In this document: positions 2,722-8,719 of the stretch, in pieces | How positions within the stretch are numbered: the stretch's first letter is position 1 | Layout: every line of letters begins with the position of its first letter | Assembly: GCA_038247415.1 (NCBI GenBank) | Contig: JBBRUX010000074.1 | Location: 1-10,526 of the forward strand | Length of the DNA stretch: 10,526 nt | Direction of reading: 5' to 3' | Source of the DNA: Chitinivibrionales bacterium | GTDB lineage: Bacteria; Fibrobacterota; Chitinivibrionia; Chitinivibrionales; WJKA01 | Made by a program: the position numbers and the translations under genes | Notes under the pieces: generated by a model | The model's input: the letters and a program-made list of their open reading frames with translations, nothing else | Databases searched by the model: none | Told to the model about the DNA's origin: nothing

Positions 2722-2826
2722 TTCCTGCCTCCGGGTGCGGGTGTGCAAAAGAATGTAGAGGAAAAATGCCTATAGTCCCAAAATGGCTATTGATAGGCTT
2801 CGGGTAGAAAACATAAATTATTTTTT

Positions 2827-2982
2827 ATGATTATGCCAAAAAAAATTCGAATTCCACTTCCCATTCAAGTCGAAAAAGTACACAAAGACAAATCTATGTA
2901 TACTCGCAAGGCTAAGCACCCTGCTACAATGGTTGCCCCTGAACAAGATAATATCCCACATTCTCAAAAAAAATCACGATAA
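2827..2982 (+). CDS. Small basic protein (51 aa) with an ArfA-like YxRKxKH motif; candidate alternative ribosome-rescue factor
   Basis: Manual translation: MIMPKKIRIPLPIQVEKVHKDKSMYTRKAKHPATMVAPEQDNIPHSQKKSR*. Absent from the ORF track (<60 aa). Upstream TTGATA (2790-2795), 18 nt, TAAATT (2814-2819) would put the transcription start at or near the ATG. Alternative start at 2833. Confidence 0.6.
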   Translation: MIMPKKIRIPLPIQVEKVHKDKSMYTRKAKHPATMVAPEQDNIPHSQKKSR

Positions 2983-2998
2983 TTTTTTACTTAATCGT

Positions 2999-3025
2999 TA
3001 AAGTCTTTAAGGAACCTGCCGATAC
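2999..3025 (+). promoter_or_regulatory. Sigma28 (FliA/SigD) promoter
   Basis: TAAA (2999-3002), N15, GCCGATAC (3018-3025). Extended form TAAAGTCT-N11-GCCGATAC vs the consensus TAAAGTTT-N11-GCCGATAA. Lies upstream of a FlgM-like gene. Confidence 0.8.
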
Positions 3026-3071
3026 TCAGTATAGGAGAGAGTGTAGCCTGTTCTAAAAGCGCCACAATAAC

Positions 3072-3103
3072 AAAAAAGCAAAGACAGTCGTCTTTGCCCT
3101 TTT
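3072..3103. terminator. Hairpin/terminator inside the sigma28 leader; better U-tract on the minus strand
   Basis: AAAAAA-GCAAAGAC-AGTC-GTCTTTGC-CC-TTTT, with a perfect 8-bp stem (3078-3085/3090-3097). Confidence 0.55.
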
Positions 3104-3185
3104 GCAATCGGCGGGAAGAGAAACGGCAATTTCCCTATGTTTAAGGTATCGGTATCTTATTTAAAAATCTTGAGTGTTATTTATC

Positions 3186-3449
3186 ATGATACAAGCATTA
3201 TCACACTACAGAATTTTAGACTATAAAGCTGCGAATGATCCCCGCGGCGTGGTGCGAGCTGCTGCTGCTTCTTCTACCGAAACTAAGCCATCAAGTTTTA
3301 AAGAGATTTTGGCAAAAAAAGAAGATATGAGTCGTAGTGAGCTTCTTAATTCGGTTCGTGAACGACTCAAAAAGGGCTTTTATAATTCAGATGCAGTTAT
3401 TGAGGATTTAAGCACCTCGTTTGCATCAGTCTTTAATCAGAAGCAATAG
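3186..3449 (+). CDS. FlgM-like anti-sigma28 factor
   Basis: 87 aa from ATG 3186 (GTG 3174 is an alternative). Low-complexity A/S N-terminal half. C-terminal SRSELLNSVRERLKKGFYNSDAVIEDLS matches the FlgM pattern R..kv..ik..i..G.Y..d....ia. Sigma28 promoter upstream. Confidence 0.65.
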   Translation: MIQALSHYRILDYKAANDPRGVVRAAAASSTETKPSSFKEILAKKEDMSRSELLNSVRERLKKGFYNSDAVIEDLSTSFASVFNQKQ

Positions 3450-3480: not shown

Positions 3481-3684
3481 ATGAAAGTTTCTAGCCCGCA
3501 GCCAGCAAGCGCCCCAGTTCCTCAAAGACCTGTTGTAAAACAAGACGAAGAAAAAGTGGCAGAAAAGAAACCTGCCGTTGTAGAAAAAAGCAGGGTAGCT
3601 ATCGAACCCGCCAAAGAAAAACCCGTTGAATCACGAGCTGAGCCTAACAATTCCCCAGCAAATGGAATCAATCTTACCGTCTAA
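3481..3684 (+). CDS. Small disordered P/E/K-rich protein with C-terminal G-I-N-L-T-V (YjfB/putative motility protein-like tail)
   Basis: 67 aa, AAGGAG RBS at about 3469-3474, followed by a terminator, directly downstream of the FlgM-like gene. Confidence 0.7.
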   Translation: MKVSSPQPASAPVPQRPVVKQDEEKVAEKKPAVVEKSRVAIEPAKEKPVESRAEPNNSPANGINLTV

Positions 3685-3705: not shown

Positions 3706-3742
3706 AAAAAGCTTCGAGCCTCCGTGGTTCGAGGCTTTTTTT
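3706..3742 (+). terminator. Rho-independent terminator ending the sigma28 unit
   Basis: AAAAA-GCTTCGAGCC-TCCGT-GGTTCGAGGC-TTTTTTT. The 10-bp stem has two G-U pairs that form only on the + strand. Confidence 0.85.
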
Positions 3743-3822: not shown

Positions 3823-4278
3823 ATGAAAATTATTTCTCAGAATCGTAAAGCGTATCACGATTATGATATTCTCGAAACTTTTGAAGCTGGTATTGTTCTA
3901 AGAGGCTCGGAAGTTAAATCAATCCGTGCTGCCAAAATTGTACTCGTGGATAGTTATATTGCAGTTGTAAAGGGTACTCTTATGCTTTACAACGCACACA
4001 TTAGCCAGTATACACAAAGCAGCATGTGGGCACCCGATCCATCGCGTGTTCGACCACTTCTCATGCATAAAAAAGAGATCGAGTATCTTGCTTCTGCGGT
4101 AGACCGAAAGCAAATGACCCTTATTCCTCTCAAAATTTATTTCGACAAGCAGTGGGTAAAGGTTGAGCTTGGTTTGTGCCGCGGAAGAAAAACCTACGAT
4201 AAACGACAAAAAATTGCCGAACAAGATTCCAAAAGACGTATTGCAGGTATTATGAAAGAGCACAGAAATGCTCATTAA
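3823..4278 (+). CDS. smpB: SsrA-binding protein SmpB
   Basis: NRKAYHDY..LETFEAGIVLRGSEVKSIR, RPLLMHKKEI, TLIPLKIYF, KVELGLCRGRKTYDKR. Start set to ATG 3823 (151 aa) because the longer ORF-track start runs through a terminator. Confidence 0.98.
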   Translation: MKIISQNRKAYHDYDILETFEAGIVLRGSEVKSIRAAKIVLVDSYIAVVKGTLMLYNAHISQYTQSSMWAPDPSRVRPLLMHKKEIEYLASAVDRKQMTLIPLKIYFDKQWVKVELGLCRGRKTYDKRQKIAEQDSKRRIAGIMKEHRNAH

Positions 4279-5714: not shown

Positions 5715-6461
5715 ATGTCGGGTCATTCCAAGTGGGCTACTATTAAACGAGCAAAAGGCAAGACCGACGCTGCTCGTGGCAAAATATTTAACCGCCTAAT
5801 TCGAGAAATTACCATAGCTGCTCGCGCTGGTGGTGGTGATCGCGAAGGCAACCCCCGGTTACGCGCTGCAATTGGCAATGCCAAAGCTCAAAATATGCCC
5901 AGCAAAAATATCGATAATGCTATCGCTAAAGGAACGGGCAGTCTCGAGGGAGTAAATTACGAAGAATTGGTTCTCGAAGGTTTTGGTCCTGCTGGTATCG
6001 CATTTTTGGTTGAAGCCATGACCGATAATAGAAATCGCACGGTTGGCGAAGTTCGCCATGCATTTACTAAAGCAGGCGGTAACCTTGGTGCTGCTAATTC
6101 GGTAAGCCGGCTCTTTAAAACACGTGGTCAAATTAGAGTGGCACTCGAATCTGCTAAAGAAGATCAACTTATGGAAATTGCACTCGAAGCCGGCGCCGAA
6201 GATATGTCTACCGACGATGAGGGCTACGATATTATCACTCCCGTCGACTCGTTTGAAGCGGTGCGGAGCGCTTTGGTTAAACTTGGTATCGAGCCAACAT
6301 CTGCAGAACTCACTAAAATTGCAGAAACTACCATGCCCGTTACGGGAGATGCTGTAGCCAAGGTACTTAAGCTCGAAGACGCTCTCGATGATCTCGATGA
6401 TGTGCAACACGTTTATGGCAATTTTGAAATTAGCGACGAAGACCTGGCCAATCTTGGCTAA
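5715..6461 (+). CDS. yebC: YebC/PmpR (TACO1) family protein
   Basis: MSGHSKWATIKRAKG...GNPRLR...EGFGPAG...TDNRNRT...LDDLDDVQHVYGN. Canonical position before ruvC; GAGG RBS. Confidence 0.97.
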   Translation: MSGHSKWATIKRAKGKTDAARGKIFNRLIREITIAARAGGGDREGNPRLRAAIGNAKAQNMPSKNIDNAIAKGTGSLEGVNYEELVLEGFGPAGIAFLVEAMTDNRNRTVGEVRHAFTKAGGNLGAANSVSRLFKTRGQIRVALESAKEDQLMEIALEAGAEDMSTDDEGYDIITPVDSFEAVRSALVKLGIEPTSAELTKIAETTMPVTGDAVAKVLKLEDALDDLDDVQHVYGNFEISDEDLANLG

Positions 6462-6470
6462 GAGGAATGC

Positions 6471-7049
6471 ATGATATTCTTTGGTATCGATCCAGGAACC
6501 GCGATAACGGGTTACGGTGTTGTTCGTACCGAAGGAAATCGTATATTCTGGGTCGATAGCGGGGCGATAGTTACGAAGCCCGCTATGACTCTTCCCGAAA
6601 AATTACTCTGCATATACGATGGACTGTTCGAAAAAATAGCAGCCCATACCCCAAATTCTGTATGCATCGAGCAAGCCTTTTATGCTAAAAATGTTCACAC
6701 AACGCTCATATTGGGGCATGCACGTGGAGCAGCTATGCTTGCAGCGGTTAAACACGGCGTGCCTGTTGCAGAGTTTACACCACGAGAAGTCAAAAAATCT
6801 ATTGTGGGCAATGGCAATGCAGAAAAGCAACAGGTAGAATACATGATTCGCCTGTTGCTTTCGCCTCCCGATGGTTGTAATCTTCCCGATGCATTCGATG
6901 CGCTTGCAATTGCTCTCTGTGGATTCTATCATGGGGTAGAGCGTAGTGTGCAGAGCCTTGGCAAACCGCACACAGCATCTATTCCAAAATCGTCTCGTTC
7001 ATTTCGAACGCTTGACAAAAAATCATTGGCAGCACTGGGGATAACATGA
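6471..7049 (+). CDS. ruvC: Holliday junction resolvase RuvC
   Basis: GIDPGTAITGYG, CIEQAF, LGHARG, VKKSIVGNGNAEKQQV, DAFDALAIA; catalytic D/E/D/D present. Confidence 0.97.
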   Translation: MIFFGIDPGTAITGYGVVRTEGNRIFWVDSGAIVTKPAMTLPEKLLCIYDGLFEKIAAHTPNSVCIEQAFYAKNVHTTLILGHARGAAMLAAVKHGVPVAEFTPREVKKSIVGNGNAEKQQVEYMIRLLLSPPDGCNLPDAFDALAIALCGFYHGVERSVQSLGKPHTASIPKSSRSFRTLDKKSLAALGIT

Positions 7050-7660
7050 TCGATTTTATCCGGGGTACGTTAGTTGTTAAAACGCCATCTTCTATTGTGG
7101 TAGAAGCGGGTGGTGTTGGGTATGGTATTTCTATCCCATTGTCAACCGCAGAAAAATTGCCCAATCTCAATACCGAAGTTAAAATGCTTACTCATTACCA
7201 TGTGAGAGAAGACGCGCATAAACTGTATGGTTTTTATACCGAGAATGAACGCGAAGTTTTTCGTGCGCTTATAAGTATATCAATGGTGGGGCCAAAGGTG
7301 GCACTGGGGATTTTATCGGGAGTTTCGGTGCCGGATCTTGTGAGGTCGGTAGCTTTGCAGGATGATACACGCTTGCGATCTATCTCTGGTGTAGGGCCAA
7401 AAACCGCCCAAAGACTTATTATGGAGCTAAAAGGCAAATTAAATGGACTCAGCGAAATCTCATCGCTTGAATCATCATCAGGATCCAGTAGTAATGGGTC
7501 CCAAACAAACAGTGCCGTGCGTGCAGAGGCTTTCGCTGCAATGCTATCTCTTGGGTATGTTGACAAACAGGTTCAGTCGGCACTCGCGCGGGTAGAAAAA
7601 ATTATAGATTCCGATGCGCCCGTCGAAAAGTGGATCACTATGGCGTTGCAGGTAATTTAA
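7046..7660 (+). CDS. ruvA: Holliday junction branch-migration protein RuvA
   Basis: MIDFIRG, GGVGY, VREDAHKLYGF, HhH motifs VGPKVAL and GVGPKTAQRL, domain III AMLSLGY. ATGA-type overlap with ruvC. Confidence 0.97.
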   Translation: MIDFIRGTLVVKTPSSIVVEAGGVGYGISIPLSTAEKLPNLNTEVKMLTHYHVREDAHKLYGFYTENEREVFRALISISMVGPKVALGILSGVSVPDLVRSVALQDDTRLRSISGVGPKTAQRLIMELKGKLNGLSEISSLESSSGSSSNGSQTNSAVRAEAFAAMLSLGYVDKQVQSALARVEKIIDSDAPVEKWITMALQVI

Positions 7661-7675
7661 GAGAAAGTTTATATA

Positions 7676-8719
7676 ATGGAAGATGAACGGTTAATCGGTG
7701 GTGCAAAGCGCGACAGTGATGATCAATTCGAGATCACGCTTCGTCCTCAAACGTTCGACGATTTTATCGGACAAGAATCACTCAAAGACAATCTCAGGGT
7801 TTTTGTTGCAGCTGCCAAGCAGCGCGGAGAAGCTCTGGATCATGTTTTATTCTGTGGCCCACCTGGTTTAGGCAAAACAACACTCTCGCGCATTCTTGCG
7901 GCAGAGCTAGGGGTATCAGTTCAAATCACATCTGGGCCGGTTATCGAGAAGAAAGGAGATCTGGCAGGCAATCTTACCAATTTGGCTGCTCGGGATATCC
8001 TTTTTATCGACGAAATTCATCGGCTCAACCGGATTGTAGAAGAATCACTGTATCCCGCCATGGAAGATTATGTATTCGACATAACCATTGGTGAGGGGCC
8101 ATCAGCTCGATCGGTTCGGCTTCCGCTTAAACCCTTTACCCTTGTTGGAGCTACAACCCGTACCGGCATGTTAACAGCGCCAATGCTTTCGCGCTTTGGT
8201 TATGTAGGTCGGCTTAACTACTATACTGCAGCAGATCTTAAAATTATAGCACTCAGGTCTGCCCGGATACTCGATGTCCCTTGCGAAGATCAAGCAGCGT
8301 TTGAGCTCGGGCGCCGTGCACGGGGAACTCCTCGAATTGTTAATCGTCTGCTTCGACGGTGTCGGGATGTGGCGCAAGTAAAGGGAGATGGAAGTATTAC
8401 GGTTGCTGTGGTTAAGCAAACATTGTCTATGCTTGGTGTCGACGACGAAGGTCTTGACGAAATGGATCGTCGCATTCTGCATGCTATTATAGACCATTAT
8501 CAGGGCGGGCCAGTAGGCGTAAATACCATTGCCGTCGTTGTGGGTGAAGAACCCGAAACCATAGAAGAAGTATACGAACCATTTCTTATTCAATCTGGGT
8601 ATCTTAAACGAACTCCCCGAGGTCGAGAGGTCACCGTAAAGAGTTATAAATATTTCGGTATTATTCCTCCGCAACGGGCAGAAACGCTGCAATCCGATCT
8701 CTTCGACGATAAAACCTAA
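7676..8719 (+). CDS. ruvB: Holliday junction branch-migration ATPase RuvB
   Basis: LRPQTFDDFIGQ, Walker A GPPGLGKTT, Walker B ILFIDEIHR, GATTR, RGTPR, YEPFLIQ.G.L.RTPRGR. Confidence 0.98.
   Translation: MEDERLIGGAKRDSDDQFEITLRPQTFDDFIGQESLKDNLRVFVAAAKQRGEALDHVLFCGPPGLGKTTLSRILAAELGVSVQITSGPVIEKKGDLAGNLTNLAARDILFIDEIHRLNRIVEESLYPAMEDYVFDITIGEGPSARSVRLPLKPFTLVGATTRTGMLTAPMLSRFGYVGRLNYYTAADLKIIALRSARILDVPCEDQAAFELGRRARGTPRIVNRLLRRCRDVAQVKGDGSITVAVVKQTLSMLGVDDEGLDEMDRRILHAIIDHYQGGPVGVNTIAVVVGEEPETIEEVYEPFLIQSGYLKRTPRGREVTVKSYKYFGIIPPQRAETLQSDLFDDKT

Follow-up and report, generated by a model that had tools for sequence, protein, structure and literature searches.

In the available portions of two published accounts, the small rescue peptide ArfA is placed only in gamma- and some beta-proteobacteria, with BrfA as a further case in Bacillus (PMC8012679, PMC11633108). 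The second of these, which in 2024 surveyed more than 15,000 genomes, reports in its accessible text that none of 1,956 from the Fibrobacterota-Chlorobiota-Bacteroidota (FCB) group has arfA (PMC11633108). The authors of the review that describes these systems expected further small release-factor-recruiting peptides, invisible to sequence searches (PMC8012679). Here we describe a candidate for such a peptide, encoded by a 51-codon open reading frame (ORF) at positions 2827-2982 of the forward (+) strand of a 10,526-nucleotide stretch of DNA (hereafter, the window) from a Chitinivibrionales bacterium (assembly GCA_038247415.1, contig JBBRUX010000074.1). A preliminary description, made from the letters alone, had proposed a divergent rescue factor in an apparently non-proteobacterial lineage. 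The lineage has been borne out: the host belongs to the Chitinivibrionales of the Fibrobacterota, and thus to the FCB group, where the survey, as far as its text is available, had no arfA (PMC11633108). We put at roughly 0.6 the probability that the ORF encodes a minimal peptide of an ArfA/DUF7230 superfamily, most likely a release-factor-dependent rescue factor for ribosomes that stall on the 3' ends of mRNAs lacking a stop codon.

The available part of the review describes how ArfA works (PMC8012679). Its basic C-terminal part sits in the empty mRNA entry channel with the KH motif in a pocket, and residues Q27-E30 add a strand to the domain II/IV sheet of release factor 2 (RF2). The N-terminus (residues 1-14) and the region of A18 become ordered when RF2 opens and matter for RF2 activation. 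ArfA truncated to 40 residues is inactive, and only 46-48 residues are visible in the maps. In both arfA and brfA, a hairpin or terminator within the ORF gives rise to a stop-less mRNA, and the factor accumulates only if trans-translation fails; the KH motif common to ArfA and BrfA is held to be convergent (PMC8012679). ArfT of Francisella is described as a member of a different, wide family with KGG repeats (PMC6514570).

The window ORF is a real, previously unannotated protein-coding gene under purifying selection on its protein. Its translation, MIMPKKIRIPLPIQVEKVHKDKSMYTRKAKHPATMVAPEQDNIPHSQKKSR (51 amino acids; stop codon at 2980-2982), agrees letter for letter with the one first quoted for it; an alternative in-frame ATG at 2833 gives a 49-amino-acid product. 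Six-frame genome searches found relatives in a genome of the same family (G002, E=7.7e-5) and in one of the same order (G011, E=7.5e-4), and further relatives lie in an unclassified metagenome-assembled genome (L013) and on a metagenome contig (L074). The five members share R-I-P-L-P-x5-V-x2-D-K-x2-Y-x-R-K-x-K-[HY], with 13 invariant positions. Over a 24-codon core, pairs of members show 7-14 synonymous codon differences against 6-11 non-synonymous ones, and third codon positions dominate the differences (for instance, 5, 5 and 19 by position between the window and L074 genes). This pattern indicates selection on the protein in the + frame and excludes both a frame open by chance and a feature of the other strand. 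Conservation in related genomes and purifying selection had both been proposed as a check, and both are seen: all four relatives keep the Y/RK motif, the last residue being H or Y, and synonymous changes are in excess. Two other matches (E=0.02-0.03), in genome G043 and on contig C14 of the source genome, contain stops and leave frames of 15-16 amino acids; they were not counted.

Protein databases are nearly silent on this gene. A word-indexed search of 5.8 billion clustered proteins returned only the query itself, and phmmer against 1.84 billion representatives (E<=0.001) returned the query and two long repeat proteins, whose scores are inflated by repetition (27 and 4 matched stretches) and which were set aside. 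Small ORFs such as this one are rarely called as genes; consequently, the six-frame searches of genomes are the more informative.

Four segments can be told apart in the protein. R8-I-P-L-P12 (2848-2862, +) is invariant in the alignment of all five members. It is followed by I13-Q-V-E16 (2863-2874, +) and by a basic core, V18-x2-D-K-x2-Y-x-R-K-x-K-H31 (2878-2919, +), which ends in the KH motif and matches DUF7230, three PHROG families and ArfA. The 20-residue C-terminal tail PATMVAPEQDNIPHSQKKSR (2920-2979, +) is not conserved among the relatives and holds no hairpin or terminator, as judged by alignment and a terminator scan. The six-frame translation of the source genome comprises 7.68 million residues, among which the shorter motif Y.RK.KH is found 4 times, whereas the extended motif V..DK..Y.R..K[HY] occurs once, at this ORF. 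A second Y.RK.KH site, on contig C63, was dismissed as chance, being out of frame within a gene for a PAS-domain protein.

The closest described family is Pfam DUF7230 (PF23876), which matches residues 17-33 of the ORF at profile positions 18-34 of 42 (21.9 bits, E=1.9e-4) and is the sole Pfam family listed for it at E<=10; NCBIfam returned no family for five small ORFs, this one among them. Furthermore, phrog_2701 matches residues 15-31 (E=4e-4), and a profile built from eight phage proteins alone ranks the ORF top among 88,856 six-frame ORFs of the source genome (E=0.014; runner-up 5.8). All 15 aligned Fibrobacterota members match DUF7230, each below the cut-off (best 7.2e-6), and they also match phrog_2701 (15/15, best 7.9e-8), phrog_6310 (13/15) and phrog_18092 (12/15). 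In the ESM Atlas, as a lead only, the neighbours of the ORF are DUF7230 clusters that are 78-80% viral. None of 50,697 phage records was matched when the ORF served as a tblastn query. We conclude, as judged by the profile matches, that the ORF is a divergent relative of DUF7230. With members such as p003 of Acinetobacter phage Ac42 (a clear DUF7230 protein, 51.6 bits) it has in common the core V-x-K/R-D-K-x-K-Y-x-R-K-x-K-H, a size within the range of 40-55 amino acids, and an ordinary stop codon, which in the phage genes lies a few residues past KH. It differs in its N-terminal RIPLP signature and in its 20-residue tail, and it lies on a bacterial chromosome, where no phage genes adjoin it. 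Our literature search found no paper naming DUF7230, a family without an assigned function.

The likeness to ArfA itself is visible in direct comparison. With the K-12 record as the E. coli reference, BLASTP aligns residues 14-32 of the ORF with ArfA residues 28-46 without gaps, 10 of 19 being identical (E=8e-5 in a single, composition-adjusted comparison). The identities are VEK, K, K, Y, RK and KH, and KDKSM stands for KGKGS, much as the preliminary description had seen; Y25-T-R-K-A-K-H31 lies opposite Y39-M-R-K-G-K-H45, so that the KH feature of ArfA is present. Both proteins are small and basic, and the elements follow one another in the same order in both, namely P-L, a V-E-K strand segment, a lysine-rich stretch and Y-x-R-K-x-K-H. 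When this register is extended, the window protein stands one to one with ArfA residues 15-45, and nothing in it answers to residues 1-14; ahead of the strand-equivalent segment it has only 12 residues, as against 26 in ArfA, in agreement with the much shorter N-terminus noticed at the outset. I13-Q-V-E16 faces ArfA Q27-R-V-E30 in the ungapped BLASTP register, whereas hhalign favours a register with a 3-residue gap; in the former register it may play the same strand role as Q27-E30. In that same register, extended by eye, RIPLP would correspond by position to the P-L-F region that, in ArfA, immediately precedes the strand contacting RF2.

ArfA genes of phages are annotated in GenBank, and it is through phages that the two families appear to be joined. 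When E. coli ArfA and a protein from a viral contig (L049, 2947-3075) were used as tblastn queries against phage genomes, a graded series of intermediates emerged. At one end are proteins with a K-G-K-G-S-Y core, among them those of phages pf16, Arash, Y3, CRP-212, XM05, RsoM2USA and RXM, which score 25.7-72.5 bits with Pfam ArfA (PF03889; curated cut-off 25.5 bits, that of DUF7230 being 27 bits). The Arash gene (L067, 217-441) scores 69.6 bits from its ATG at 298 and is recorded as 'ribosomal protein L2', an apparent mis-annotation. Between these and p003 of phage Ac42, which is also part of the series, stands a protein of Pseudoalteromonas phage J2-1 (ATN93434.1; L064, 283-435), annotated as ArfA by its depositors, in which an ArfA-type N-terminal half is joined to R-D-K-T-K-Y-R-R-K-K-K-H. 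It passes both cut-offs with overlapping matches (ArfA, 41.3 bits, residues 7-46; DUF7230, 28.6 bits, residues 26-50), and BLASTP of the ORF against it gives 8 of 15 identical (E=3e-4). It has the core R-D-K-T-K-Y-x-R-K-x-K-H of the window's family with a longer, ArfA-like N-terminus, and its function is annotated by homology only. The L049 protein is a similar mosaic, its N-terminal half resembling phage Y3 and its C-terminal half DUF7230, with weak matches to both models. The DUF7230 model matches E. coli ArfA at E=0.11. In addition, hhalign of 18 DUF7230-like against eight ArfA-type sequences aligned the expected segments (P=0.001), with a 3-residue gap opposite the extra K-G-K of ArfA, and the 15-sequence Fibrobacterota profile against E. 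coli ArfA alone gave P=0.006.

Since this evidence consists of intermediates and short alignments, homology of the window ORF and DUF7230 to ArfA is likely but not proven. The mosaics, which join an ArfA-type half to a DUF7230-type core, together with the passing of both models by the J2-1 protein, suggest that Pfam ArfA and DUF7230 should be treated as one superfamily; the window protein is not a formal member of Pfam ArfA. As for the phage proteins, gp30 of pelagiphage HTVC027P, a phage ArfA, is reported in the available text to be expressed during infection (PMC12753301); our literature search found no functional test of phage ArfA. BrfA (B. subtilis YqkK), as described in the accessible part of the review, resembles the window protein in its small size, its KH motif and the job proposed for it, and its terminator within the ORF is shared with relatives of the window gene (PMC8012679). 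Likeness to BrfA and ArfT was judged from their descriptions; in Pfam at E<=10, where only DUF7230 is listed, the ORF has no other match, and it contains no KGG-type repeat of the ArfT kind.

Relatives within the phylum provide a further line of evidence. The DUF7230 model, run over 296 Fibrobacterota genomes, gives sub-threshold matches in 90 and none above the cut-off; 82 of the 90 lie within one family of 151 genomes, largely of the genus Fibrobacter. At these loci (L016-L045; for example, L043:1387-1593:+) there is a conserved small gene with a perfect Shine-Dalgarno sequence and about 65 conserved residues, whose product ends ...L-R-T-R-V-V-R-D-K-T-K-Y-N-R-N-L-K-H-K-K-S-L-A-D-A-G-D-F-P-F, followed by a tail variable in length and sequence. 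The 15-sequence Fibrobacterota profile finds 777 proteins at E<=0.1 among 6,729 candidates; among the 120 matches listed, those with a name are all 'hypothetical protein' of Fibrobacter, and not one carries a Pfam domain. The Fibrobacter family is like the window protein in its phylum, in its core (R-T-R-V-V-R-D-K-T-K-Y-N-R-N-L-K-H) and in its sub-threshold matches to DUF7230 and the PHROG families. Unlike the window gene, it has an N-terminal part that is longer by about 40 residues and a strong Shine-Dalgarno sequence, and within its ORF a terminator hairpin of 12 bp is followed by unconserved tails.

This hairpin recalls the arrangement of arfA and brfA. In a terminator scan of the 75 nt after the KH codon at 34 Fibrobacterota loci, a stable hairpin followed by a run of T was found at 30, and at 29 it stands ahead of any stop codon; after it, the frames continue for 4 to 49 unconserved codons. 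The Fibrobacter hairpin (12 bp, dG -16 to -20 kcal/mol) begins 2-3 nt after the KH codon, and its stem pairs in 98.4% of cells as against 44-64% when it is slid. Fold z-scores are -3.6 (L043) and -2.5 (L003, which is the orthologue in G011 of the window gene). Hairpins of at least four unrelated sequences occupy the same place, namely the Fibrobacter type and those of L003, L016 and L017, and this recurrence of different hairpins at one position is a stronger argument than covariation in Fibrobacter. By analogy with arfA and brfA, a terminator so placed would put the product of these relatives under the control of transfer-messenger RNA (tmRNA). Two loci depart from the common arrangement: at L029:1387-1569:+ a stop codon comes 24 nt after KH and is followed by a different strong terminator, an ordinary design, and at L023:1387-1632:+ a 27-nt insertion separates KHKKS from the hairpin.

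The window gene itself departs from arfA in that it ends in an ordinary stop codon and lacks a regulatory hairpin. Its stop lies 60 nt after KH, ahead of any hairpin, and the region 2917-3040 is less structured than its shuffles (z = +2.22). With this stop codon and this unstructured 3' end, the window copy is probably either expressed constitutively or translated from a simple transcript that may be leaderless, like the phage versions. Thus, of the ArfA-like tail of about 20 residues that had been proposed, the length holds and the ArfA-like regulation does not.

The partners that a factor of this kind would need are encoded in the source genome (96% complete), which has a tmRNA gene, smpB and two genes with an RF-1 domain, identified from their sequences as RF2 (with the S-P-F motif; L056) and release factor 1 (RF1; L057). 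Genes for RF2 (prfB) usually carry a +1 frameshift site, and the RF2 frame here starts at a TTG just past the usual place of that site. A third RF-1-domain gene of the size of ArfB was not found, an absence that in a 96%-complete draft is not proof. Most of the 296 Fibrobacterota genomes have three RF-1-domain matches (the tally includes the unpublished genome G253, on which nothing depends). The third match is a frame of 144-148 amino acids, the size of ArfB, in G002 and G004, and the three in G011 are RF1 and two fragments of RF2. Since only RF1 and RF2 were found and no ArfB-size copy, the source genome may rely on the peptide as its only back-up to trans-translation.

If the peptide acts like ArfA, its basic core, from V18 to K30-H31, would occupy the mRNA entry channel of the 30S subunit when it is empty, so that only ribosomes without downstream mRNA would be recognised. 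I13-Q-V-E16, together with the invariant RIPLP, would then lie in the decoding centre and contribute a strand that pairs with domain II/IV of a class-I release factor, whose GGQ loop would hydrolyse the peptidyl-tRNA with no need of a stop codon. This would be the mode of action of ArfA with a smaller activation segment; we infer both the binding to the ribosome and the choice of release factor by analogy. A predicted complex of the ORF (five-member alignment) with RF2 of the source genome scored 0.00, which weighs neither for nor against binding.

A number of findings weigh against a rescue function of the ArfA kind. The DUF7230 score of the ORF is under the curated cut-off (21.9 vs 27 bits). 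Pfam ArfA does not match the ORF even at E<=10; the ArfA model run over the whole source genome hits only two unrelated sub-threshold places and misses the ORF; and an ArfA-type profile (E. coli and seven phage proteins) gives it E=57 and 5.6 bits genome-wide. Sequence searches of the PDB with the ORF and with an alignment returned nothing at E<=10, and no ArfA chain. From hhalign the probabilities were low, at 6% for the comparison with E. coli ArfA by itself and 21% for that of the 18 with the eight sequences. There is also no clean complementarity with ArfB, because G002 has both a window-type gene and an ArfB-size gene and most Fibrobacter likewise have a third RF-1-domain gene beside their family member. 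No two-sided compensatory change was seen in the Fibrobacter hairpin (0 of 12 pairs; shuffles reach the score in 82 of 500), so that its conservation could partly mirror that of the amino acids. An in-ORF terminator is lacking in the window gene and in three of its four closest relatives (G002, L013 and L074), and consequently the tmRNA-controlled design is not a property of the window gene. Finally, our literature search found no laboratory test of the family, although the supplementary tables of PMC11633108 and PMC6514570 may list related matches. The early proposal of a divergent rescue factor stands in part. The conserved gene, the homology to DUF7230, the link through J2-1, the in-ORF terminators of relatives and the presence of tmRNA, SmpB, RF1 and RF2 with no ArfB detected support it; the lack of a match to Pfam ArfA and to the ArfA-type profile, the ordinary 3' end and the unconserved link to smpB do not.

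These findings leave room for other explanations. It is conceivable, if rather unlikely, that the peptide is a homologue of ArfA and DUF7230 that binds the ribosome and does something else, recruiting no release factor: it might plug the empty mRNA channel as a hibernation factor or competitor, modulate trans-translation, or be a phage-derived accessory gene for conflict between phage and host. The largely viral make-up of its nearest family (the DUF7230 clusters of the Atlas and the three PHROG families) would suit this, as would its patchiness (3 of 81 genomes of the order), the lack of a tmRNA-linked design in the window copy and a segment before the core that is 14 residues shorter than that of ArfA, whose N-terminus is needed for RF2 activation according to the review as available (PMC8012679). 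Yet the protein keeps the segment equivalent to the strand (IQVE vs QRVE) and the P-L upstream of it, no prophage genes adjoin the ORF in the window (Pfam scan), and relatives in the same phylum are stop-less, a design otherwise known, in the accessible text of the review, only from back-up rescue factors (PMC8012679). Less probable still is that this small basic protein resembles ArfA by convergence, through one K/R-rich motif only, and binds RNA or DNA in some unrelated role. Such an origin could account for a likeness that spans only about 19 residues of biased composition, for the failure of ArfA profiles to find the ORF and for the chance occurrences of Y.RK.KH in the genome, and the KH of ArfA and BrfA is itself deemed convergent in the available text (PMC8012679). 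Against convergence stand the graded intermediates with the same order of elements, the J2-1 protein above both Pfam cut-offs, the composition-adjusted BLASTP match to ArfA, and the phage-only profile that singles out the ORF genome-wide. That there is no gene at all, only a chance frame or a non-coding or opposite-strand element (a 49-amino-acid ORF lies at 2818-2967, -), is very improbable. The missing Shine-Dalgarno sequence and annotation, and the ORF being its own only exact or near copy among the clustered proteins, would fit, but this idea is already contradicted by five members that keep the amino acids of the + frame while their codons differ mainly at third positions, and by the 15 of 15 related ORFs that match the same protein families.

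As regards the expression of the window gene, a sigma-70-like promoter match, TTGATA-18-TAAATT, lies just 5' of the ORF at 2790-2819 (+), with 9 of 12 positions matching. The plausible promoter that had been proposed is thus present as a sequence, but such sites are not above chance in the region (5 vs 3.1 +/- 1.8 in shuffles). No Shine-Dalgarno sequence is found 5' of the ATG at 2827 or that at 2833. If the 2790-2819 site is used, transcription would start at about 2826, at the first ATG, leaving the mRNA with little or no leader. The transcript likely ends at a terminator-like hairpin about 95 nt after the stop codon (3078-3103, +; hairpin 3078-3097, with an 8-bp stem and a 4-nt loop, followed by CC and TTTT), which is present in both the minimum-free-energy and the centroid folds and is missing from the consensus terminator scan because its tail has just four T.

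The gene smpB (3823-4278, +; Pfam SmpB, E=5e-55) most likely begins at the ATG at 3823, 841 nt past the ORF stop. The proximity that had drawn attention to the ORF is therefore real, but the link is not conserved: smpB was found near none of the 43 other loci of the family (154 kb). Since, in addition, two small ORFs (3174-3449 and 3481-3684, +; no family matches) and a terminator-like site (3716-3737) intervene, the closeness is probably a coincidence. The C-terminus of the first of these ORFs may be FlgM-like. Similarly, no tmRNA was found near family members at the 40 loci scanned; on the viral contig a tRNA-Met lies 1.1 kb upstream of the ArfA-like gene (L049:1763-1839), and the other 39 loci contain no tRNA or tmRNA. 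On the other side of the ORF, a divergent 68-codon ORF for a very acidic protein (2542-2748, -; zero Pfam or NCBIfam matches) starts 78 nt from the ATG. Farther upstream are genes for an AraC-type regulator and a GH57-like protein, and downstream are those for an amidase, yebC, ruvC, ruvA, ruvB, a DUF2905 protein and an acylphosphatase. The yebC-ruvC-ruvA-ruvB cluster (5715-8719), after the amidase gene, is ordinary, with nothing unusual.

Taken together, the window gene and its relatives provide a concrete candidate rescue family from a distant phylum, with phage intermediates as its bridge to ArfA, and they suggest that back-up rescue of the ArfA kind occurs well outside the proteobacteria. 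Some members of the candidate family are stop-less, a design that implies tmRNA control, and others end in a stop codon. A wider hypothesis, which we offer tentatively and regard as possible though doubtful, combines these points. In this model, DUF7230 and ArfA would form one superfamily of mRNA-channel-sensing rescue peptides that phages have carried into the Fibrobacterota and further phyla. Among its cellular members the window gene would be the most reduced, with a functional core of about 31 residues, no N-terminal activation segment, and expression from an ordinary, perhaps leaderless mRNA free of tmRNA control; in a genome that lacks ArfB, it would be all that backs up trans-translation. 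On this view, recruitment of a release factor would need far less peptide than the ArfA structures suggest, and rescue of the ArfA type would be widespread, not a speciality of beta- and gamma-proteobacteria. The core of about 31 residues would then mark the least that a peptide needs in order to detect that the mRNA channel is empty and to engage the release factor, which also bears on peptide inhibitors of rescue pathways.

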